A stretch of 44,346 nucleotides of DNA. Source: a virus. The stretch lies in UHGV virus genome UHGV-0027446; one strand, written 5' to 3'. A program made the position numbers and the translations under genes. The notes beneath the pieces are model-generated. The model was not told the origin of the DNA. It saw only the letters and a program-made list of their open reading frames with translations, and ran no database searches. Of this stretch, positions 4,888-41,016 are shown one piece after another (position 1 is the first letter of the stretch; every line of letters begins with the position of its first letter).

Positions 4888-4907
4888 AAGGCCCCAAACG
4901 GGGCCTT
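4888..4907. terminator. bidirectional rho-independent terminator (AAGGCCCC-AAAC-GGGGCCTT)
   Basis: Perfect 8-bp GC-rich stem; T-run on plus side and long A-run (U-run for minus transcripts) on the other; between convergent gene blocks. Confidence 0.6.
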
Positions 4908-5561: not shown

Positions 5562-6982
5562 TTCTTACCTCGTCTCTTCATGTAATTAAGCAACTCTTCC
5601 TGTACCGATTTCTTCTCGTCTGTGCGCGCGGCAACAACCTCATCCAGCGTGTCTTTAGCAACGATGTGGTACAGGAACACAGGGCGCTCGTGGCCTGCCT
5701 GTTTCTGGCGAACTGGGCCTATGCGCTCGACAACCTGCAAATAGTGCTCAAGGTTCCAGCCTTGCGAAATAAACGCCAGATGATGCCCGCCGTCCTGTAA
5801 ATTCAAACCATGACCGGCTGACGCAGGGTGCACGCATAAGATTTCGATTTCGCCACGGTTCCACGCTTCCATCTGTTTATTACCCTTCGCGCCTTTGGCA
5901 AACGCCTGTGCCTGCGGGAACCGCTTAAGGATGCGCTCCAGTTCGTGCTTGAACTGATAGGCCACCAGTAACGGCGCGCCCTGTAACTCCTCAACAATCG
6001 ACTCGAGCGCATCCAGTTTCGTGTCATGCACTTTCTCCCAGTCTTTGGTTGCTTCTCCGTCTGGCCCTGACACGTATACAGCGCCGGATGCAATCTGTAA
6101 ACACTTAGACGTTTTCGCTGCGGCGTTAGCCGCTTCGACTTCTCCGCTTTCAAGTTCCGCAAATAGCTTCTCCTCCATATCGATGTACGCCTGTCGCGCT
6201 TTCTTCGGCAGGTTGATTTCAACCGGTACAATAATCGGCGCTTCACAACCAAACCACTCGGCAGCGTCAATCGTGAGACTGATGTCCTTCATCTTCTGGT
6301 GAATTTCATTATCCGCACCAGGGCGGGCGTGGTATTCGCGCGCCATAGCCGACTTACCTTTCTGCACCGAGTTAAACCAGCGGTCGGTGAATGCCGTGTA
6401 TGAAGACCCGAGGCGCTCGCCGGCGTCGATAAACCAGTTCTGCCCCCACAAGTCCTTGAGGCCGTTCGGTGACGGTGTCCCTGTAAGGTTTATCAGCCGC
6501 TTAACATTTCTAAATGCTACTTTACTAAGCGCCTTTGCCCTCTTGCTCCCGCCAGAACGGCTACGGAATGATTTCAACTTCGTGCTTTCATCATTAACTA
6601 TCACGGTAAAAGGCCAGTCGTCTACGCCGTAATAGTCGATAAGCCACTCTATAACCTCATAGTTAATACAAATTACATTAGCGTCAGACTCCAGCGCCGC
6701 GATGCGGCGCTTCTCTGAACCGGTTGCATCGACGACACGCAGACACGGGAAACCCCACTTAGTTTGTTCTGCTGGCCATGTACCAGACGCAACGCGCAAC
6801 GGGGCGAGAATTAACACGCGGTCGTCGTCCGTAAGCTGCCCGTTGCGGAACAGGCGGTTTAAAGCCCACAGTACGCTGCCAGTCTTCCCGGCGCCCATGC
6901 TCGCCCAAATATTACAGCGATTGTGCCGCAACATGAACGAGGTCATGAGCTTCTGGTACTCGCGCCTTTGAAACTTACTCAT
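5558..6982 (-). CDS. SF2 (SNF2/DEAD-like) DNA helicase
   Basis: Walker A GAGKTG, DExx-like IVNDEST, C-terminal helicase domain motifs; in replication operon. Confidence 0.75.
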   Translation of the reverse strand: MSKFQRREYQKLMTSFMLRHNRCNIWASMGAGKTGSVLWALNRLFRNGQLTDDDRVLILAPLRVASGTWPAEQTKWGFPCLRVVDATGSEKRRIAALESDANVICINYEVIEWLIDYYGVDDWPFTVIVNDESTKLKSFRSRSGGSKRAKALSKVAFRNVKRLINLTGTPSPNGLKDLWGQNWFIDAGERLGSSYTAFTDRWFNSVQKGKSAMAREYHARPGADNEIHQKMKDISLTIDAAEWFGCEAPIIVPVEINLPKKARQAYIDMEEKLFAELESGEVEAANAAAKTSKCLQIASGAVYVSGPDGEATKDWEKVHDTKLDALESIVEELQGAPLLVAYQFKHELERILKRFPQAQAFAKGAKGNKQMEAWNRGEIEILCVHPASAGHGLNLQDGGHHLAFISQGWNLEHYLQVVERIGPVRQKQAGHERPVFLYHIVAKDTLDEVVAARTDEKKSVQEELLNYMKRRGKK

Positions 6983-7170
6983 TTCGCCACCAGAACTAAC
7001 TCTTTACGCCCGAACGCCGTAACGTTACCAGTTACATCTTCGATAACCAGTTTACCGTTCGACTCGACGTACACTGTATCAACGGCAACAGGGCGACGGG
7101 TCTTAACGTTGAAAATCATGTCGCCAGGTACGATGTCGCGGGCTGGTTTGCGGTCATATTCGTGTTTCAT
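6979..7170 (-). CDS. hypothetical protein
   Basis: 63-codon ORF translationally coupled (ATGA) to helicase; preceded by promoter 7204..7232. Confidence 0.4.
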   Translation of the reverse strand: MKHEYDRKPARDIVPGDMIFNVKTRRPVAVDTVYVESNGKLVIEDVTGNVTAFGRKELVLVAK

Positions 7171-7200
7171 TTCTAAATTCCTTATATTGTTGGTGTGTGA

Positions 7201-7485
7201 TTAACTATAATAGTTCGCTATTAGGTCGTCAACCTGTTTAAACGAACCAACGACAAAAACATTTGCACCACGTTTACGCATACGCTCGTGCTCTCGTAGC
7301 TGGTGCGGGTCAGGCTTCGTGTTTTCGTCTTTCTTAACCTCGACGAACCAGATGATGCCGCCGGGGAGGATTACCAACAGGTCGGGGGCGCCTCCTCTAT
7401 TTTCGTACGACAATTTGCGTACGAGGCCCCCCAGGGCCTCAAATCGGTCTTTTGCGTATTTCTGAACACGGCCCTCTTTAGTCAT
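7201..7485 (-). CDS. VRR-NUC domain nuclease
   Basis: PDLLVILPGGIIWFVEVKK PD-(D/E)XK-type core; probable start at internal ATG (MTKEGRV), track ORF starts at TTG 7500. Confidence 0.6.
   Translation of the reverse strand: MTKEGRVQKYAKDRFEALGGLVRKLSYENRGGAPDLLVILPGGIIWFVEVKKDENTKPDPHQLREHERMRKRGANVFVVGSFKQVDDLIANYYS
7204..7232 (-). promoter_or_regulatory. sigma70-type promoter, family A (TTGACG-N17-TATAGT)
   Basis: Minus-strand reading TTGACG acctaatagcgaactat TATAGT; shares spacer motif with promoters at 11734 and 14400. Confidence 0.45.
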
Positions 7486-7634
7486 GAGCGCAGAACCCAA
7501 GTAAGGAAAGCCCCACCGAGAACGGCAACGCCAACAAACTTAAAGAACAGGCCATAACAGAACATCGCGGCTATTCCAGCACCGAGTAACAGTGCAAGCA
7601 TGGTCACTATCGTCCAAAATACAAGCATTGTCAT
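7482..7634 (-). CDS. small hydrophobic membrane peptide (50 aa)
   Basis: Hand-translated MTMLVFWTIVTMLALLLGAGIAAMFCYGLFFKF...; stop overlaps VRR-NUC ATG. Confidence 0.25.
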   Translation of the reverse strand: MTMLVFWTIVTMLALLLGAGIAAMFCYGLFFKFVGVAVLGGAFLTWVLRS

Positions 7635-7720
7635 AATACACACCCCTCTCGTTTTGTATGCTCAATACCGCAGCGTGGACAGATTCGGCAGTCTTCTTCG
7701 TATAACCAGTAAATTTTCAT
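7631..7720 (-). CDS. small Cys-rich peptide (29 aa), zinc-ribbon-like
   Basis: Hand-translated MKIYWLYEEDCRICPRCGIEHTKREGCVL; ATGA overlaps on both sides. Confidence 0.2.
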   Translation of the reverse strand: MKIYWLYEEDCRICPRCGIEHTKREGCVL

Positions 7721-7848
7721 TCCAGTACCCACAAATAAATTGCTACTAGCATACCCAATACGGCGACCATCATGCCGTATTGACCCTCGTGACAGTAGAC
7801 ACCGGCGGCGAAGCCCGCCAGTACCGCGATAATCAGTTTACTTAGCAT
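7717..7848 (-). CDS. small hydrophobic membrane peptide (43 aa)
   Basis: Hand-translated MLSKLIIAVLAGFAAGVYCHEGQYGMMVAVLGMLVAIYLWVLE; start overlaps last codons of polymerase gene. Confidence 0.25.
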   Translation of the reverse strand: MLSKLIIAVLAGFAAGVYCHEGQYGMMVAVLGMLVAIYLWVLE

Positions 7849-10800
7849 AACGCTTCATCTCCGCGCCTTCCGCTACAAGAGGGAAGCCCTCTGCCCATTC
7901 CGGCAATTCGCACATCAACCGCCCAAGCTCTGCGACATTGTATTCTGGTAAATCTGGCGTCTCGCAGATAATCTCATCGTGAACATGAAGCACAATAGGA
8001 TAGCCGTTTGCCTCTACGTTCAGCAGTGCATTAGCCAGCAAATCACGGCACAGCGCCTGAGTGCAGTTTTCCACCAGTTTACCAGAGTAGGTGTACTGGA
8101 AACCCCACTGCCGTGTTAACTGGTTTTCACCCTGGTACTTGATGCGGACGTTAGTAGACACCTTCCCGTCTTCGTCTGTCTCTTTAGACACGCTTAACCC
8201 GACTCCGGGGTAAGACATAACGCGGCCCGACGGCAGCGTCATGCGCAACCACCAACCAGCGACTTTGTTGCCGTTGCTATCTGTCTCTACGTTGCGCGAA
8301 AATTTAACGCCGCGTGGCCCTGCAGTGAACTCTTTGCCAGGATTACGGATAGCCGCCATAGCCGCATCTTCAATATCCCGCCAGAACGCTACTGTTTCCG
8401 GGTGTGACTCACGCCACATGCGCTTGATAGCGTCGCAGGTACGCCACACTTTCTTATCAAGAATATACGATGGTCGGTCATCCTTTTCACCGGGCCGCGG
8501 AGGTCGCTTGGCTTCCTGAATACGCGCCCATTCATATCCGCGTGCAGTAGCGGCCCATATATGGTCGGGGAAAGTACCGTCCATTGTTTTAGCCATATCA
8601 ACAAGATTTAAGCCGAGGTTTTTAGCAAACTGAACGAAAGCGCCGACGCCGCCTGCGTAGCCGAGGCCCAATTCACAGTTATGCGCCACAAGAAAGCCAG
8701 AGTCTGACGCTATAAGAAAACGGTTACCGTCTTCCACATCAATCAGGTCGTAAACCGGCTCGCAGTAGGTTAATTTCCCGTTCAAGCTCAGCAATGCGGG
8801 CAACGGCTGCATCATATTTTCGTTGAAGCTCGGGTATTTGCCGCCTGTTACGGCAGTTTTCAGAACGGCTGACAAACCGAATGTTTCCAGGTTCGTAGTT
8901 ACCGTCTGTGTCGATTCTGTCCATTTCGAGGTTTGGGTCGTCCCAGCCTTCCAGAGTTTGAACATATCTAAGAAACGACCTTTTATCAGTCCTCCACTGG
9001 TTAAATACCGTGATGCCCCTGGCGCCATAGTTTTTATAGCCTTTGTCATTAGGTTTTGTTGTTCGCGATATCGCCGCGGACAGCCGGTTGAGCAATCGCG
9101 CTCTGTGACTGTCATCTGGCATCGCATCCTCGTAACAGAAATACTGTTTACGATATTTTTTTGTTGCTTCAAGTGCGCAGCGGTTACATTGAGTGGTTTT
9201 ACCTCTTCTAACATTGTCGTACCCGACGCGCCCCGGAATCTCTCCGCAATCACATTGAGCAAGTAGTTGTCTATGACCTTGTCGTTTTGGTAACTCGCGC
9301 AGGATAACCAGGCGTCCATACCTCTCTCCAGGGCGAGGCCCATCATATATTTGTTTGAAACGAGTTGCTTTGCCGCCTTCCAGGAATGCGTCAATATTTT
9401 GTGGTCTTCGGTCATTAGAACCCCGTCCACATTTATCACTGGTTTCCACCCCATAAGGTGCGCGCCTTTTGTATTCACCCATTTTTCACCGTTCCATACT
9501 TTATCTGTTGATGTAACCGCCATAATATCCTTAAATCCACCATCGGTCAAAACTTGGGTATGGCGGTGAAGACAGGCCTTGCCAATCTGGCGCAGGTCAC
9601 TACGGCTTTCGAGAATGTAATCGGGGTCCATTCCGAACATCTTACCCGCAGTTACACAGTAAATATCCAGTCCCGCACGGAAAGTATCGAGAGCGGTTTC
9701 TTCTCCCGCCAGCCATGCCAACCCGCGTCCTTCAACGTTAGAGTAATCGGCGACTACAAACTTATGTCCGGCTTCCGGTATGATGCAGCTACGCACCGTC
9801 GATGCCGTTAGTTTGGCCACATCAAAACGGCGATGCGCACGGCCTTTAAACAACAGGTCGATTCCGTAGGACAATGGGTGTGTTACTCGCCACCAGTCCT
9901 TCTCTGACATCCAGTCATAGCGTACTTTCTTCTTTTTATTCTTCGGGTCGTCGTGATAGTACCCGCGCGCCAGGTTCTGCGGCTGAAAGCCTTTGCCCGC
10001 AAATCGTAATGTACGCTTCGCTCCGCCATACTGGATGCAACCACGACGGCGGTCGTCCGACGAGCGGCCCAACAGCAGCGGGTTATATTTCGTTGACGCG
10101 GTAGACGCGGCTCCGAGGCGCATTTCGATAATCATGCGGGCGTCGTCCGGTAAATCATCATCCGCCAACAAGTCATTCAGCGTTGACTTCTGCGCGTTGT
10201 GGATGCGGTGCGCGGGTGCGAGTTCACGCAGAATCGGCAGAAAGTCTTTACCAGTAAGCGAGCCGCCGTATTTTCGTTGGGCTTCTTCCTGTAACTGCGC
10301 TTTGTGTTTCTCCACGGCTTCAATCGCGGCTTCTGCCAGCGCGACGTCTACCTTAAACCCTCGGTCATTGATTAACTGGTCCAGCTCAAGTACACGGTCC
10401 TCGAACTCTGAGTTACCCCACCGCGGCAGCTTATGGAAGACTTCACGCATCGCAGTGATGTCGCTCACGGCGTACTTGATGAACAGCGCCCACTCGTCCG
10501 GGTGTGTTTCGGCGGTGTAGCGGCGGATTTTGTAGTTCTTCGGCGTAGGTTTAGAAAAACGCTGAATCAGCGCCTTGCCGCGTTTGTCTTTTGCGTTGTC
10601 TGCGGACACGCCCAACACTTCGCACAAAGCATCAAGTGAACCCGGCAGCGCGTGACGAAACGCCCAAATCATCGTATCAATGGTGTTGTTTACCGGAATA
10701 TCAAAACCCCAGCAGTGTTTCATGATGAGCCTGTCGAACATTGAACCGTTGTGCCACACCATCTTGATACGGCTGTTCGGTTTAACCAGACGGCGTAGCG

Positions 10801-10987
10801 CGCGGTGCAAATCGCCAGGCATGTCGCTGCCGTCTGTGCAGTCCCATACCTGTACGGGCTCGTCGTCAAAAGCATAAGTACAGATGAGCACTTCGGTTGA
10901 CGGGTGTTCGGCGTAAGCGTAGGAACCGACTTTCTTTAAATCGACTCCGGAGAATGTTTCAAAGTCTAAGTAGAGTAATTCTGGCAT
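7838..10987 (-). CDS. family-A DNA polymerase with 3'-5' exonuclease domain, interrupted by an intein
   Basis: Exo I motif YLDFETFS; motif A VVADYSNVEGR; motif B split by a 299-codon insertion; likely start at ATG (MPELLYLDFE), track ORF extends to TTG at 11017. Confidence 0.85.
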   Translation of the reverse strand: MPELLYLDFETFSGVDLKKVGSYAYAEHPSTEVLICTYAFDDEPVQVWDCTDGSDMPGDLHRALRRLVKPNSRIKMVWHNGSMFDRLIMKHCWGFDIPVNNTIDTMIWAFRHALPGSLDALCEVLGVSADNAKDKRGKALIQRFSKPTPKNYKIRRYTAETHPDEWALFIKYAVSDITAMREVFHKLPRWGNSEFEDRVLELDQLINDRGFKVDVALAEAAIEAVEKHKAQLQEEAQRKYGGSLTGKDFLPILRELAPAHRIHNAQKSTLNDLLADDDLPDDARMIIEMRLGAASTASTKYNPLLLGRSSDDRRRGCIQYGGAKRTLRFAGKGFQPQNLARGYYHDDPKNKKKKVRYDWMSEKDWWRVTHPLSYGIDLLFKGRAHRRFDVAKLTASTVRSCIIPEAGHKFVVADYSNVEGRGLAWLAGEETALDTFRAGLDIYCVTAGKMFGMDPDYILESRSDLRQIGKACLHRHTQVLTDGGFKDIMAVTSTDKVWNGEKWVNTKGAHLMGWKPVINVDGVLMTEDHKILTHSWKAAKQLVSNKYMMGLALERGMDAWLSCASYQNDKVIDNYLLNVIAERFRGASGTTMLEEVKPLNVTAAHLKQQKNIVNSISVTRMRCQMTVTERDCSTGCPRRYREQQNLMTKAIKTMAPGASRYLTSGGLIKGRFLDMFKLWKAGTTQTSKWTESTQTVTTNLETFGLSAVLKTAVTGGKYPSFNENMMQPLPALLSLNGKLTYCEPVYDLIDVEDGNRFLIASDSGFLVAHNCELGLGYAGGVGAFVQFAKNLGLNLVDMAKTMDGTFPDHIWAATARGYEWARIQEAKRPPRPGEKDDRPSYILDKKVWRTCDAIKRMWRESHPETVAFWRDIEDAAMAAIRNPGKEFTAGPRGVKFSRNVETDSNGNKVAGWWLRMTLPSGRVMSYPGVGLSVSKETDEDGKVSTNVRIKYQGENQLTRQWGFQYTYSGKLVENCTQALCRDLLANALLNVEANGYPIVLHVHDEIICETPDLPEYNVAELGRLMCELPEWAEGFPLVAEGAEMKRYAK
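8678..9574 (-). mobile_element. intein inserted in polymerase motif B
   Basis: Starts CLHRHTQVLTDGG (block A), has LMTEDHKILT (block B), ends YDLIDVEDGNRFLIASDSGFLVAHN with Cys at +1; excision restores RQIGKA-CELGLGYAGG. Confidence 0.7.
8739..9482 (-). CDS. HNH homing endonuclease, encoded in an alternative frame within the intein
   Basis: 247-codon ORF, same strand as polymerase but a different frame; YGRLVIL, QCDCGEIPGRVGYDNVRRGKTTQCNRC, KGYKNYGARGITVFNQW, LEMDRIDTDGNYEPGNIRFVSRSENCRNRR. Confidence 0.55.
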   Translation of the reverse strand: MGEYKRRAPYGVETSDKCGRGSNDRRPQNIDAFLEGGKATRFKQIYDGPRPGERYGRLVILRELPKRQGHRQLLAQCDCGEIPGRVGYDNVRRGKTTQCNRCALEATKKYRKQYFCYEDAMPDDSHRARLLNRLSAAISRTTKPNDKGYKNYGARGITVFNQWRTDKRSFLRYVQTLEGWDDPNLEMDRIDTDGNYEPGNIRFVSRSENCRNRRQIPELQRKYDAAVARIAELEREINLLRAGLRPD

Positions 10988-11007
10988 GGTATTTCGACCC
11001 TTAGTAA

Positions 11008-11027
11008 AAAGGCCCAATGAAGGGCCT
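11008..11027 (-). terminator. intercistronic hairpin / attenuator between SSB-like gene and polymerase gene
   Basis: AAGGCCC-loop-GGGCCTT followed on the minus-strand transcript by UUUUUACU; lies in the 30-nt gap just upstream of the polymerase RBS. Confidence 0.45.
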
Positions 11028-17474: not shown

Positions 17475-17687
17475 TTACTTAACGCCCGCGATCCACGCAC
17501 GCTCAGAAGTGTAGAAACGACACTTACTTAACGACTCGATTGGCATCTTAATAATTCGTGTTGTTCCTGAAAAATAATCAGGTTTGCATATTTCTGCATA
17601 GAAACCGCTGTCCGTAATTTCTGACGCAAACTTAAACCGGTATTTAACTTTACCGTTCTCAAAGTAACAACCCATACGTCCAATCAT
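17475..17687 (-). CDS. hypothetical protein
   Basis: 70-codon ORF, ATGA coupled to AlpA-like gene. Confidence 0.4.
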   Translation of the reverse strand: MIGRMGCYFENGKVKYRFKFASEITDSGFYAEICKPDYFSGTTRIIKMPIESLSKCRFYTSERAWIAGVK

Positions 17688-17866
17688 TTAACGTTCTCCT
17701 TAATCCACGCTTCAACTTTATTACGGTCAAATGTTCCCGGTAAACGGCGGCCCATAACCTTAATACAGCAATCCGGGAATTTACCACTGCGCAACCAGTT
17801 ATTAATTGTCTGACGTGTCACCCCGATACGTTCAGCTACTTCATTCTGTGTCATGTAATTCGGCAT
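17684..17866 (-). CDS. AlpA/excisionase-like HTH DNA-binding protein
   Basis: MPNYMTQNEVAERIGVTRQTINNWLRSGKFP; AGGAGAT SD before internal ATG (track ORF extends to 17938). Confidence 0.55.
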   Translation of the reverse strand: MPNYMTQNEVAERIGVTRQTINNWLRSGKFPDCCIKVMGRRLPGTFDRNKVEAWIKENVK

Positions 17867-17907
17867 TTTTACATCTCCTGTTTGTTTGGTGAAAACGAGT
17901 ATAGGAT

Positions 17908-17936
17908 GGCGGGAATGTAAAAGCAACCAAAACAAC
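17908..17936 (-). promoter_or_regulatory. sigma70-type promoter (TTGCTT-N17-TATACT), leftward
   Basis: Read on minus strand immediately upstream of AlpA-like gene. Confidence 0.4.
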
Positions 17937-17973
17937 ACACAAAGTTACTAAGATACAAAAGATGCTACCGGTA

Positions 17974-18002
17974 TTGACTTTTACTAAGAAATATGGTAAG
18001 CT
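17974..18002 (+). promoter_or_regulatory. extended -10 promoter of conserved element copy R1 (TTGACT-N14-TGgTAAGCT)
   Basis: Near-identical promoter at 31328..31356. Confidence 0.45.
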
Positions 18003-18005
18003 CAG

Positions 18006-18215
18006 CCTGAGCTTGTGAAGTATGAACAAGCGACCGCGGCGCGCGGCAGGCGAAACGAGCACGTGTAGCGTGTGGAGTGAGGCTCGCTAGCGCGTTTGGG
18101 AGGCCCAAAGTCTATTGTAATTCCAGCCTAAATATCTAAGTTACTGATTTGCCGTAGGTTTTATCCGCAAGCTCACTCACTCACTCTTGGTGCCTTCGGC
18201 ACCACGTTCGTTTCG
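18006..18215 (+). ncRNA. candidate conserved leader / small RNA, copy R1
   Basis: Begins at predicted TSS with 38 nt identical to 31360..31397, including hairpin GCTTGT-gaagtatga-ACAAGC; ends near GGTGCC-TTCG-GGCACC hairpin. Confidence 0.3.
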
Positions 18216-18280
18216 TTTCGCTCGCTATCCCCTTAAACAAAAGAATCACAACGGCAACGTAACCATTTTCGATGAATCTC

Positions 18281-18309
18281 TTGCACACCCCAACATAATA
18301 GGCTACTAT
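18281..18309 (+). promoter_or_regulatory. sigma70-type promoter, family B (TTGCAC-N17-TACTAT)
   Basis: TTGCAC accccaacataataggc TACTAT; near-identical copies at 31233 and 40095 (minus) and 19646 (plus). Confidence 0.5.
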
Positions 18310-18343
18310 TCACTTATCGAAACGAGACAGAGGAGTGAGGGCT

Positions 18344-18523
18344 ATGTTTAAACGTGGTCAAATCGCACGAGACAACAACGGTTCTATTTATTCTATCCGC
18401 AGCATGGAGATTTTTAATGGGTTCTACCGTGTGCAGGATGTTGTTTCGGGAAAGGTGCTTGTGCGCCATGCTTCAAATTTAAAACTCATCGGCAACAATT
18501 TTAAATTCAAAGGGGCGAAGTGA
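18344..18523 (+). CDS. hypothetical protein
   Basis: ATG after GAGGAG; first gene after promoter. Confidence 0.4.
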   Translation: MFKRGQIARDNNGSIYSIRSMEIFNGFYRVQDVVSGKVLVRHASNLKLIGNNFKFKGAK

Positions 18524-19645: not shown

Positions 19646-19674
19646 TTGCACGCTGAGCTAGAATAGGCTACTAT
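19646..19674 (+). promoter_or_regulatory. sigma70-type promoter, family B (TTGCAC-N17-TACTAT)
   Basis: TTGCAC gctgagctagaataggc TACTAT, then conserved leader with GAGAGGAGAG SD. Confidence 0.5.
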
Positions 19675-30861: not shown

Positions 30862-30865
30862 TAAA

Positions 30866-30892
30866 AGGCCCCTTACGGGGCCTTAGTTTTAT
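30866..30892. terminator. bidirectional terminator (AAGGCCCC-TTAC-GGGGCCTT + T-run)
   Basis: Between convergent genes 30400..30861 and 30889..31203. Confidence 0.55.
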
Positions 30893-31232: not shown

Positions 31233-31261
31233 ATAGTACCCTATTATGCTGGGGTGTGCAA
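31233..31261 (-). promoter_or_regulatory. sigma70-type promoter, family B (TTGCAC-N17-TACTAT)
   Basis: Minus-strand TTGCAC accccagcataataggg TACTAT. Confidence 0.5.
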
Positions 31262-31327: not shown

Positions 31328-31356
31328 TTGACTTTTCACTGAAAATATGCTAAGCT
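31328..31356 (+). promoter_or_regulatory. extended -10 promoter of conserved element copy R2 (TTGACT-N14-TGcTAAGCT)
   Basis: Same architecture as 17974..18002; -35 overlaps 16-bp palindrome AACTATTCGAATAGTT. Confidence 0.45.
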
Positions 31357-31359
31357 CCA

Positions 31360-31563
31360 CCTGAGCTTGTGAAGTATGAACAAGCGACCGCGGCGCGGGC
31401 AGGTAACGGAGCGGGACGTAAGTCCTGAGTGTAGTTACGCTGACGCGTTCGGAAGGGCCATACTCTATTGCTTGTGTAAAAAGTAACTGGTTTACTGAAA
31501 TTGCGCCGTTTCTATGTTTAAATGATAAGTACTAGCGCCCCGCTTTAAGGCGGGGCTTTACTT
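31360..31563 (+). ncRNA. candidate conserved leader / small RNA, copy R2 (upstream of spanin genes)
   Basis: 38 nt identical to R1 at predicted TSS, ~70% identity beyond; ends in GCCCCGC-TTTAAG-GCGGGGC hairpin + TTTACTT. Confidence 0.3.
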
Positions 31564-33912: not shown

Positions 33913-33928
33913 GGTTAAGCTATAATCG

Positions 33929-33956
33929 AGAGGGACTTCGGTCCCTCTTTTCATTT
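33929..33956 (+). terminator. rho-independent terminator
   Basis: AGAGGGAC-TTCG-GTCCCTCT followed by TTTCATTT. Confidence 0.5.
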
Positions 33957-37277: not shown

Positions 37278-38447
37278 ATGGCTACAACTCCTTTTAAGGG
37301 CGCGAATACCGCGCAATTCTATGTGGCGGAAGTGACCCCGGGCGTAACACCAAGTAACCCGGTATGGTCGCCGCTGCGCAATACTGGCGGCGTTCCCGCG
37401 GTAACCCGCGACGCGCTGACTTCCAACGAACTCGACGGCAGCCGAGAAACTACATCCATCCGCACTGGTAACAAACAGGTCAGCGGCGAGTATGCCATTG
37501 AGCTTAGCTCCCGTAGTCAGGATGATTTCCTTGCTGGTGCGATGACATCTACTTGGCAGGATGGTGTAACCTTATCCGCTGTTGGCATTACGGTAGACCC
37601 TGTAGCTAAAACCTTTACCCGCGCCACCGGCAGCTTCATTACTGACGGCGTAGAGGTCGGGGACCTTCTGTATTTTGACGCTTTAACCGGAGATAACTCT
37701 AAGCCGTTCATCGTTACTGCCGTAACAGCTACTGTGGTTACTGGTGCAGGCATTCAGCACACCCTTACCGCCGAAGGCCCTATTGAGACCGATGGAAAAA
37801 CTGGCGATAAACTGGAAACCGGTAACGCATGTAAGACGTTCTCCATCCTGACATGGTTCAAAGGACAGTGCGGGAACCCTGACGCGTACATGTTGACCAA
37901 AGGCGTGGAAATCTCCGGTTTTACTATCGAGCAGGCCGTAAACGCGATGGTGACAGGCAGCTTCCCGTTCATCGGTCTGAGTCAGGAAATTCTTACCGCG
38001 CCGCCAGCAGGTTCTGACTTCTCCCAGGTTACGTTCACCGATGAGCCGTTCTCGTCTGTAGATGTATCTGTGTTCGACGGTTCCACGCCGTTGCGTTGTG
38101 ATACTCTGACCATCACCAACGACAACGGCGCATCTGCTCAGTTCGAACTCGGCAACAGTAGCGTTGCGTTCGTGGAACGTGGTCGCGCGGCTAACACCTT
38201 CTCTATCTCCGGCAAGCTGTACGACATGGCGATGATTCAGAAGTTTATCAACGAACAGCAGGTGGAGATTAACTCTATTCTGGCCGGGGTAAACGGGGCT
38301 ATGTCTTTCAGCCTGAAACGCGCAGAACTTACGGCGGTTACACCAGAGATTGGTGGGCCAGAGTCAATCACTCAGTCCATCGAAGGCCAGGCAACCGGCA
38401 ATCAGTATCAGTCATCTATTGTTATCCAGCGTATCACCTACGCATAA
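37278..38447 (+). CDS. major tail (tube) protein
   Basis: 389-codon ORF upstream of chaperone and tape-measure genes; AAGAGG SD. Confidence 0.6.
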   Translation: MATTPFKGANTAQFYVAEVTPGVTPSNPVWSPLRNTGGVPAVTRDALTSNELDGSRETTSIRTGNKQVSGEYAIELSSRSQDDFLAGAMTSTWQDGVTLSAVGITVDPVAKTFTRATGSFITDGVEVGDLLYFDALTGDNSKPFIVTAVTATVVTGAGIQHTLTAEGPIETDGKTGDKLETGNACKTFSILTWFKGQCGNPDAYMLTKGVEISGFTIEQAVNAMVTGSFPFIGLSQEILTAPPAGSDFSQVTFTDEPFSSVDVSVFDGSTPLRCDTLTITNDNGASAQFELGNSSVAFVERGRAANTFSISGKLYDMAMIQKFINEQQVEINSILAGVNGAMSFSLKRAELTAVTPEIGGPESITQSIEGQATGNQYQSSIVIQRITYA

Positions 38448-38450
38448 AAC

Positions 38451-38476
38451 TAAGGCCCCGACAGGGGCCTTTTTCT
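38451..38476. terminator. bidirectional terminator (TAAGGCCCC-GACA-GGGGCCTT + T-run)
   Basis: Between major tail gene and convergent minus-strand cassette. Confidence 0.6.
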
Positions 38477-39833: not shown

Positions 39834-39872
39834 GCTTTACTTCCTCGTGTTTAGGATTTGTCTTATAGTAGC

Positions 39873-40064
39873 CTACTTCTCTTTCACGTTCGAGTTGCAA
39901 GCCCATATTAAAATAAATAACCACGGCAGCAGAACCCAACCAAGAAACAGGTTAGCCATGAATATAGCTAACTTCGCTTTATGGTTACGGAAGTACGCAA
40001 CCAGGAAAGGCGCGAAATAAGCGAGCAGTGCAAACAGAATTAAGGAAACTGGTAAACTGGACAT
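39873..40064 (-). CDS. superinfection-immunity (Imm)-like small membrane protein
   Basis: Two TM segments, LLAYFAPFLVAYFRNHKAKLAIFMANLFLGWVLLPWLFILIWA; internal ATG after AAGGGG. Confidence 0.5.
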   Translation of the reverse strand: MSSLPVSLILFALLAYFAPFLVAYFRNHKAKLAIFMANLFLGWVLLPWLFILIWACNSNVKEK

Positions 40065-40094: not shown

Positions 40095-40123
40095 ATAGTA
40101 CCCTATTATATTGGGGTACGCAA
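40095..40123 (-). promoter_or_regulatory. sigma70-type promoter, family B (TTGCGT-N17-TACTAT)
   Basis: Minus-strand TTGCGT accccaatataataggg TACTAT driving the cassette. Confidence 0.5.
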
Positions 40124-40231
40124 GTAATGTGATAGAATAATTTTGCGCCTAGTGTCGCACACGAAAAGCGGGTGGTTCCCGTCTGGCGCATTTATCGTTA
40201 ACCTGTAACCTCTTAACCAAAGGATTAAAGA

Positions 40232-40651: not shown

Positions 40652-41016
40652 ACGCGCTGTACAGGTTCGCCACCTACGAGTTTGTGGATAAGCATAAAAT
40701 CAGAGAGTTTGATTCTATAGCTGACGGTCACGAACAGGCGCTTATCGCGATGGGTGTAATCGATAAGAAAAAACGTGCAGCGCGACGGGGTGGGCCAGAA
40801 TGCCCGCCCCTTTTTATATCCACCTTTGAGACGTACTGTGACATTAAGTTTACGCGACACGTGCGCGAGGACGCTGTAGTATTGTTCGCAAGAGAATCCG
40901 TTACGTGGCAAGACCTGAAAGCCTATCTCGATGTTACGCAAAAACAGCTTAGCCTGTTCGAGATAGACATTATCATGGGCTTAGAAGCAATCTTTGAAGG
41001 TAGAAATCATGGCTGA
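40621..41016 (+). CDS. tail assembly chaperone frameshift extension (gpT-like, -1 frame)
   Basis: -1 frame open from 40621 overlapping last 10 codons of G; no SD before first in-frame start codon (GTG 40684); ends overlapping tape-measure ATG. Confidence 0.4.
   Translation, partial: RRAQNITGKVDALYRFATYEFVDKHKIREFDSIADGHEQALIAMGVIDKKKRAARRGGPECPPLFISTFETYCDIKFTRHVREDAVVLFARESVTWQDLKAYLDVTQKQLSLFEIDIIMGLEAIFEGRNHG

Follow-up and report, generated by a model that had tools for sequence, protein, structure and literature searches.

The genome of the phage UHGV-0027446, a stretch of 44,346 nucleotides (nt) that we refer to throughout as the window, poses the question of what a promoter and its untranslated leader are doing in two related copies, R1 and R2, each at the head of a block of rightward genes. 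Our analysis reports that the two leaders very probably belong to an undescribed family of structured RNAs, made from the + strand behind a predicted strong extended -10 sigma-70 promoter, placed at the 5' end of the transcript and found at the head of a late operon in nearly all Guernseyvirinae. The window itself is a Kagunavirus genome (Guernseyvirinae), whose closest relatives are the Escherichia phages Snoke, Shashou and Sciku (~94% identity around the element) and whose gene order is the same as that of phage K1G. The replication block runs leftward and ends in a small helix-turn-helix (HTH) gene, 17684-17866 (-), adjacent to R1; the first rightward block, with R1 at its head, comprises from position 18344 onwards small genes, lysis genes, terminase and portal; and the second, with R2 at its head, runs from 31581 through an Rz-like spanin, scaffold, capsid and connectors to the tail.

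A preliminary description of the R1 locus, made from the letters of the window, had singled out an extended -10 promoter followed by 38 nt identical between the two copies, and both features hold. The 38-nt block CCTGAGCTTGTGAAGTATGAACAAGCGACCGCGGCGCG occurs exactly twice in the window, at 18006-18043 and 31360-31397, on the + strand in both cases, and was matched in none of 100 shuffles. Ahead of each copy stands the promoter TTGACTTTT-N11-TGn-TAAGCT with a 17-nt spacer (Table 1), and these two sites are the sole matches to the pattern in the window at up to three mismatches, compared with 0.11 expected. The promoters are identical at 23 of 32 positions and the block that follows them at 38 of 38. 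Judging from promoter geometry alone, transcription is predicted to start at G18009 or A18010 in R1 and at G31363 or A31364 in R2. Similarity does continue past the 38-mer, at a level below the ~70% originally given (67% as far as CTATTG and 60% in the 100 nt beyond). The surrounding non-coding region is likewise present, and measures 477 base pairs (bp), from the start of the divergent HTH gene at 17867 to 18343, rather than ~400 bp. Within the element as first delimited the conserved core reaches to ~18117, while the remainder, 18118-18215, is only loosely conserved between the two copies.

From its predicted start the conserved unit spans ~110 nt and consists of a short 5' hairpin (hairpin I), a 2-nt linker (GA), an imperfect hairpin of ~66 nt (hairpin II) and an unpaired tail; the same architecture is obtained when the core of every variant is folded singly to its minimum free energy (MFE). 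These variants comprise a Kagunavirus (K) type, a Jersey (J) type and at least five diverged versions of R1, designated w (this window), b, c, d and e. The 5' hairpin GCTTGT-GAAGTATGA-ACAAGC, correctly recognised in the preliminary description, lies at 18011-18031. It begins 1-2 nt past the predicted 5' end in every type despite differing in sequence, Jersey having UACGCU-UUC-AGCGUA in its place and variant e a stem of 8 bp capped by a GAUA loop; the loop varies within the family and is different in each of the K, e and J types. Most of the structure, however, resides not in the 5' hairpin but in the long second hairpin, which that description had lacked. Hairpin II of R1 carries the internal loop GGAGUGAG on its 3' side; that of R2 has the internal loop GGAG/AGUGUA, the apical stem CGGGAC-GUAA-GUCCUG and the covarying pair C31394-G31447, and a covariance model scores the R2 copy at 148 bits (E = 1.4e-43). 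The tail has the general form GGAAGGGCC-N6-UCUAUUG, with a family consensus of GGAAGGG(C/U)C-N6-8-UAUUG that is shared by the K and Jersey types and partly by Cornellvirus. Both the unpaired tail and the internal-loop sequence (GAGUGUAG) are invariant across genera, and such invariance of unpaired segments implies recognition by a macromolecule.

The fold is supported by compensatory changes of paired bases among relatives, a covariance analysis of the kind that the preliminary description had proposed. Two alignments were used: A3, built with MAFFT from 34 distinct sequences and not fitted to any structure, and A4, which is model-fitted and includes the Jersey type. In A3, 94.5% of cells are in standard pairs, compared with 33-39% when the partners are slid by 1-3 columns, and changes on both sides occur in 43 cells against 10.9 +/- 2.6 in shuffles, none of 500 shuffles reaching 43. 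In A4, 95.7% of cells pair and compensatory changes are found at 11 pairs (1 of 500 shuffles). At A3 columns 37-98, which correspond to C31394-G31447, the combinations C-G, U-A and A-U all occur, and at columns 48-87 U-A, A-U and G-C; the apical stem of hairpin II exists in at least five sequence versions, and the middle of the Jersey hairpin II is a continuous GGUCGCG/CGCGACC helix that replaces GGCAGGUAAC/GUUACGCUG. Three helix positions are G-U in nearly all sequences, and since these pairs would be C-A mismatches on the other strand, the molecule that folds is the + strand transcript. The conservation is thus at the level of RNA and specific to the + strand, and the preliminary reading of the locus as a small RNA or a structured 5' leader is supported. 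In the K-type genomes the median identity of the element is 97% compared with 92% for the adjacent coding sequence, by an ungapped and therefore rough comparison. An all-versus-all covariation scan for tertiary pairs gave nothing readable, the signal being swamped by the few independent lineages.

Alternative folds were also considered. A local hairpin, CCGC-GGC-GCGG, is possible in all variants and cannot coexist with the closing helix of hairpin II; in variant d a compensatory change keeps the local hairpin and breaks two pairs of the long-range helix, and the local hairpin may be a folding intermediate. A three-way junction, with CCUG/CAGG closing hairpin I together with this local hairpin, was rejected in favour of the long-range helix, which is better supported by the three Watson-Crick types at one of its pairs. 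A pseudoknot between the loop of hairpin I (AGUAUG) and the tail (CAUACU), a perfect 6-bp match in R2, was rejected as well: it is lost in R1 and in the e, d and J types, and its middle position varies freely. When whole leaders were folded up to the start codon no conserved alternative structure was seen.

The element does not encode a conserved protein. The only short open reading frame (ORF) common to the two copies (MNKRPRR...) had been discounted because of a 1-nt indel between them, and this indel (GCGCGCGG versus GCGCG-GG) is real; the length and frame of the ORF differ between R1 and R2 as a result of it, and its ATG is absent from variant e and the Jersey type. A protein-coding small ORF of any kind was rejected on the grounds that indels of 1-2 nt are common in the alignment, start codons are missing and the frame is not kept, and a tiny upstream ORF (a Shine-Dalgarno-like AAGGG with UUG) on the grounds that its start codon is lost in K1G and L008. 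In several GenBank records short 'hypothetical protein' genes have been called across the element on either strand (L002, 3303-3410 (-); L140, 449-559 (+); L150, the Jersey record, 7265-7456 (+)); these ORFs are not conserved and are probably gene-calling artefacts over a structured RNA. Nor does the element belong to a curated family of Rfam 15, whether of riboswitches, ribozymes, small RNAs or leaders: a search of the complete window at gathering thresholds came back empty, and when R1, R2 and the Jersey copy were searched by E-value, the hits stayed at chance level, far below threshold. The window contains no tRNA or tmRNA.

Absence from relatives would, according to the preliminary description, have suggested a recent fortuitous duplication, but hundreds of related phages carry the element. 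IMG/VR was scanned for exact words and GenBank phages were searched by blastn, and both place it in Guernseyvirinae only. The K-type version at the R2 position is nearly invariant and occurs in 181 records, all Kagunavirus plus ~65 Salmonella phages; these records hold 224 places, which means that only ~43 genomes also have an R1 copy. Jersey carries a much more diverged version at the same place (34.7 bits, E = 1e-8 with the covariance model; 59.9 bits with a second model), behind its own promoter TTGACT-N17(TGn)-TACGCT, and this J type is found in 269 further records. The K and J types together account for 450 records (181 + 269), compared with ~462 that have a capsid protein at least 80% identical. 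The position is constant: the element lies directly behind a promoter, and copies of the R2 and Jersey type stand upstream of the Rz-like spanin gene. The R2 copy (31360) is the ancestral, near-universal one, R1 being a secondary duplicate that only a minority of Kagunaviruses carry; K1G, which lacks R1, has a different promoter and an unrelated stretch of ~200 nt in its stead. In L038 the copy at the R2 position has a c-type core, which points to exchange between both sites.

Exchange has also occurred between genera. The Salmonella phage LSPA1 (L204) has a Jersey-like backbone with a K-type element in a block of ~1.6 kb (6150-7750) that is 86-97% identical to Kagunavirus, showing that the promoter, leader and 5' part of the spanin gene have been exchanged as a module. 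A co-varying partner protein was sought through this mosaic, and none was singled out among its many mosaic blocks. In the single Cornellvirus record examined the match is weak and partial (10.4 bits, limited to GACCGC...CGGAAGGGUC), and homology is not established. Outside phages, 5,426 complete E. coli genomes contain no similar sequence, and the 185,579 genomes of GTDB gave one true match, a mis-binned phage contig, and two chance matches. A host origin or mimicry of a host RNA was accordingly rejected, bacterial genomes being without a true copy except for this contig. Among 33 metagenomic loci, 28 are full-length, near-invariant K-type R2 copies, three are chance matches and two are too short upstream to read.

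In both copies a GC-rich, terminator-type hairpin follows ~70 nt past the conserved unit. The R1 hairpin, GGTGCC-TTCG-GGCACC in the preliminary description, is indeed found at 18188-18204; variants c and e have a longer hairpin in its place (GGGGUGGGC-UAAC-GCCCACCCC within AGAGUAC/GUACUCU), followed by UUUUAAG. The R2 hairpin forms part of an intrinsic terminator that ends 10 nt ahead of the ribosome binding site of the Rz-like spanin gene (ATG 31581), and its stem is kept in relatives by compensatory changes (GCCCTGC/GCAGGGC, GCCCGGC/GCCGGGC and GCCCGAC/GTCGGGC). Upstream of R2 lie a terminator (30865-30884; Jersey 7187-7207) and a minus-strand gene, so the R2 promoter is the only evident one for the operon from 31581. 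A second strong terminator stands behind the capsid gene (33928-33949) and is conserved in Jersey (9859-9876).

Table 1. Promoters, RNA helices, tails and terminators of the two copies of the element; A3 and A4 are the alignments described in the text.
Feature	Position	Strand	Description
R1 promoter	17974-18002	+	-35 TTGACT 17974-17979; TG 17994-17995; -10 TAAGCT 17997-18002
R1 hairpin I	18011-18031	+	GCUUGU / 9-nt loop GAAGUAUGA / ACAAGC; 6 bp; all cells pair
R1 hairpin II	18034-18100	+	closing CC(G)...(U)GG plus GGCGCGC/GCGCGUU; GGC/GCU; apical GCACGU-GUA-GCGUGU (variable); MFE and covariation
R1 unpaired tail	18101-18117	+	AGGCCCAAAGUCUAUUG; alignments A3, A4
R1 terminator-type hairpin	18188-18204	+	UGGUGCC-UUC-GGCACCA; poor U tract (ACGUUCGUUUCG)
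R2 promoter	31328-31356	+	-35 TTGACT 31328-31333; TG 31348-31349; -10 TAAGCT 31351-31356
R2 hairpin I	31365-31385	+	identical to R1 hairpin I
R2 hairpin II	31388-31452	+	CCG.GGCGCG/CGCGUU.CGG; GGC/GCU or CAG/CUG; GUAAC/GUUAC; MFE and covariation
R2 unpaired tail	31453-31470	+	AAGGGCCAUACUCUAUUG; alignments A3, A4
R2 intrinsic terminator	31537-31563 (hairpin 31537-31556)	+	8-bp stem, 7 G-C (GCCCCGCU-UUAA-GGCGGGGC), then UUUACUU

Two further observations concern the region of the R1 hairpin. Between the end of the R1 element and the hairpin there is a (CTCA)n microsatellite (18173-18187), with 3-4 units here and ~7 in L042. The hairpin is also flanked by the exact complements TTGCCGT (18149-18155) and ACGGCAA (18251-18257); both are kept in K1G, which is without R1, and they may therefore belong to a separate downstream leader domain.

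A second family of promoters, TTGCAC-N17-TACTAT with the conserved spacer ..CCCCAAcATAATAGGsTACTAT, is present in the window at 18281-18309 (+), 19646-19674 (+), 31233-31261 (-), 40095-40123 (-) and 39865-39893 (-). The first of these sites is situated between the R1 hairpin and the first gene, and another points away from R2. The pattern matches the 'phage-specific promoter' consensus obtained with PHIRE and reported for phage fBC-Eco01 (PMC9825357). These sites are probably a distinct temporal class of promoters for the host polymerase.

What, then, might such a leader do for the operons behind it? Drawing on the analogy with the put RNAs of phage HK022, we tentatively propose, as a possibility that we favour without holding it to be probable, that the element is a cis-acting leader that makes the host RNA polymerase (RNAP) read through the terminators that follow, either alone or with a host or phage cofactor. 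The nascent RNA would act on the very RNAP that had just made it, with or without such a factor, and render it resistant to pausing and termination; transcription from the R1 and R2 promoters would then pass the terminator behind the element and, further on, internal terminators such as the one after the capsid gene. This proposal is consistent with the placing of a real terminator between R2, the sole evident promoter for scaffold and capsid, and the first ribosome binding site, and with that of a second strong terminator behind the capsid gene in both Kagunavirus and Jersey. The duplication of promoter and element as a cassette before another operon, with the fold kept through five variants, fits a function that is independent of the genes that follow, and the travel of the element as a small block between backbones, as in LSPA1, points the same way. 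The layout is like that of HK022 putL, and conservation of the element exceeds that of the coding sequence beside it, which also argues for read-through. PHROG scans covered 20 small ORFs near R1 and R2, in and beside the early region; no Q-like or N-like protein was recognised among them, and this too favours an RNA that acts in cis. Apart from one HTH/excisionase-like regulator, the scans returned families of unknown function.

A number of observations weigh against the read-through proposal. The element has no similarity to put in sequence or structure. Rfam contains no put model, and putL and putR were therefore located in HK022 directly, with the residue numbering checked against PMC9378689; covariance models of R1 and R2 give no match in the HK022 genome at E <= 10, and with putL and putR as queries blastn-short finds nothing longer than words of 7-9 nt in R1, R2 or the Jersey copy. 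The hairpins of the Jersey type, of R1 in this window and of Cornellvirus have poor U tracts, so that a conserved termination function is not secure. The second promoter at 18281-18309, standing between the R1 hairpin and the first gene, means that R1 could be a self-contained unit, and R1 is moreover dispensable, most relatives (K1G for example) being without it. Finally, the late unit driven from R2 may be only ~7 kb long with one internal terminator, probably ending at 38452-38471, and the distal tail genes could be transcribed from a possible extended -10 site near 40131 (TGATAGAAT). Among the papers searched, none ties Guernseyvirinae to non-coding RNA, antitermination or mapped transcripts.

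The alternative that survives best is that the element is a stand-alone small RNA of ~175-200 nt acting in trans on host or phage targets, for instance to take over the host, to serve as a decoy against defence or to titrate out a protein, with R1 and R2 as paralogous genes and the genes downstream served by leaky read-through. We consider this unlikely. Both copies are equipped with a strong promoter and, at ~+180 to +195, with a terminator-type hairpin whose stem is kept by compensatory changes, and the invariant unpaired tail (GGAAGGGCC...UCUAUUG) might act as a seed or bind a protein. The idea fits R1 well, where a separate promoter follows before the first gene, and fits R2 poorly, where the phage genes with the highest expression have no other evident promoter and the ribosome binding site begins 10 nt past the hairpin, so that much transcription must pass through. 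The poor U tracts of the Jersey, R1w and Cornellvirus versions also count against the idea, as does the variation of the hairpin I loop, the candidate seed with the greatest exposure, between the K, e and J types; and E. coli genomes hold no similar sequence.

Less probable still is a post-transcriptional role for the 5' leader, whether in protection from decay by RNase E and RppH, as a site for RNase III or in tuning the translation of the first gene. The placing of hairpin I within 1-2 nt of the predicted 5' end in every type, in spite of its differing sequence, is what would be expected of a 5' stabiliser; hairpin II is a long irregular duplex that resembles known RNase III substrates, and the cassette precedes the operons that need the highest expression. 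A 5' hairpin alone would nevertheless suffice for stabilisation, leaving the invariant tail, the internal loop and 110 nt of conservation unexplained, and the element lies ~110-220 nt from the first start codon with another hairpin in between.

We regard as improbable, and slightly more so, a regulated attenuator, in which the leader would be bound by an N-like phage protein, a host protein or a small ligand, and formation of the terminator would set the timing of late genes. The order of promoter, structured RNA, terminator and late genes resembles that of lambda PR'-tR' and of riboswitch leaders, and the local CCGC-GGC-GCGG hairpin competes with the closing helix, variant d keeping the local one by compensation; the partner could be one of the numerous small early proteins whose function is unassigned. 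There is, however, no conserved alternative pairing to the terminator stem, from which the element is separated by a poorly conserved spacer of ~65 nt. No known antiterminator protein family was detected in the 20 small ORFs scanned, and no riboswitch was matched in Rfam. The element also moves between backbones as a small block, a point tempered by the other mosaic blocks in which a partner could have travelled.

A feature of the DNA around the start site deserves separate mention. The -10 hexamer is repeated a few bases on, in the 5' arm of hairpin I (17997-18014; 31351-31368; Jersey L150 7295-7325), as TAAGCT-N5-TGAGCT in the K type, TAAGCT-N4-TGAGCT in variant e and an exact TACGCT-N3-TACGCT in Jersey, with no repeat in Cornellvirus. 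The K-type repeat has G at the critical second position, where a Q-type pause element has its key A, and in both K-type copies the palindrome AAGCTC-N5-GAGCTT spans the start site. The repeat or palindrome may be a sigma-dependent pause signal or an operator, and may add a DNA-level or pausing component. That the locus is solely such a DNA signal, a promoter with an operator (AAGCTC-N5-GAGCTT or the repeated hexamer) and a functionless RNA, is highly improbable. In its favour, R1 and R2 both have the palindrome and the repeat, the hexamer covaries from the K type to the Jersey type, and an HTH regulator gene adjoins R1; but the idea is largely refuted by compensatory changes through 100 nt past the start and by strand-specific G-U pairs, while the repeat is absent from Cornellvirus, the K-type copy is without the critical A at position 2, and the spacing of the hairpin I arms varies (N9, N4, N3) in a way ill-suited to a dimeric DNA binder.

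Several other features of these genomes came to light. A bidirectional terminator, AAGGCCCC-N4-GGGGCCTT, is found repeatedly where rightward and leftward blocks meet (4888-4907, 30865-30884 and 38452-38471) and is conserved between Kagunavirus and Jersey (L150 7187-7207, 14328-14347 and 26169-26188). The frameshift extension of the tail assembly chaperone gene, just ahead of the tape measure gene, contains at 40787-40810 (+) a strong terminator-like hairpin (GGGGTGGGC-CAGAAT-GCCCGCCCC, then TTTTT); no counterpart was found at the equivalent place in Jersey. The DNA polymerase ORF at 7838-11017 (-) encodes 1059 amino acids, compared with 726 in K1G and Jersey, and likely contains an insertion of ~330 amino acids, an intein or a homing endonuclease. 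In K1G (L001) a unit of ~26 nt (TATAACTGACCGCAGGCTTATCCG) is repeated three times in tandem at 37500-37580, in an unannotated early region.

Guernseyvirinae are among the phages of E. coli and Salmonella most often isolated for therapy and biocontrol, with more than 450 genomes in the collection searched. The element is their most conserved non-coding feature and stands at the sole evident promoter for scaffold and capsid, and it is unannotated or marked as a spurious 'hypothetical protein' in several records. The read-through proposal can be put in a stronger and more doubtful form: that the element represents a second class of RNA that reprograms RNAP in cis, with a fold unrelated to put, driving the late operons of virulent siphoviruses (Kagunavirus, Jerseyvirus and perhaps Cornellvirus) with no phage antiterminator protein, as a portable cassette of promoter plus RNA. 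If RNAP were indeed made resistant to termination, this would be only the second such class in phages and would provide a compact, portable part for synthetic biology; were the element instead a small RNA, the phages would possess an abundant effector. Either reading defines a new RNA family.

The element was compared with known phage and bacterial leaders. Phage lambda PR' is a strong promoter with an untranslated leader of ~180-200 nt ending in a terminator (the '6S' RNA), and works with the protein Q, the qut site and a sigma-dependent pause. The leaders described here are alike in following a constitutive-looking strong promoter, in their length of ~180-200 nt to the terminator, in the lysis or structural genes behind it and in the -10-like hexamer at the start in the K and Jersey types. 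The Q system, by contrast, operates at the level of DNA and protein and does not depend on a conserved RNA fold; no Q-like protein is among the ORFs scanned here, and the repeated hexamer is without the key A in the K type and is absent from Cornellvirus. With lambda nutL and nutR, the sites at which N acts together with Nus factors, the element shares the presence of two related RNA sites, one per operon, near promoters, each with a hairpin and a conserved single strand. Unlike nut, the leaders here have no boxA above chance: boxA (GCUCUUUAACAA / CGCUCUUA) at up to three mismatches occurs 40 times in the window compared with 40.5 expected, with none in the R2 leader and a single boxA-like match with three mismatches in the R1 leader, at 18229. 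No N-like protein is among the ORFs scanned, and recognition in the manner of boxB is unlikely because the loop of hairpin I is not conserved. The ops element of RfaH, GGCGGTAGnnTG on the non-template strand, has no + strand match in either leader at up to two mismatches, and its 34 occurrences in the window compare with 36.8 expected. The stabilising 5' untranslated region of ompA and the RNase III sites of T7 early mRNA likewise present a 5'-terminal hairpin and a long irregular duplex in an untranslated leader; little is conserved outside their stems, whereas here the unpaired segments are invariant across genera.

The put RNAs of HK022 occur as copies near sigma-70 promoters that head long operons, and consist of two bulged stem-loops with conserved unpaired bases (PMC9378689). 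Like them, the element is present as related copies in one genome, forms a two-hairpin RNA just past a sigma-70 promoter and is followed by terminator-like hairpins. It is larger, at ~110 nt compared with ~70 nt, and has one short and one long hairpin where put has two of similar size; it heads the late structural operon of a virulent siphovirus, mostly in one copy, whereas put belongs to a lambdoid temperate phage. In put, pausing and termination are suppressed without protein factors through the zinc-binding domain of the RNAP beta' subunit, and by analogy the element may have a comparable effect on RNAP. The element has no detectable relationship to any curated RNA family. It is of a kind already known, a promoter-proximal structured leader that may be a cis antiterminator.

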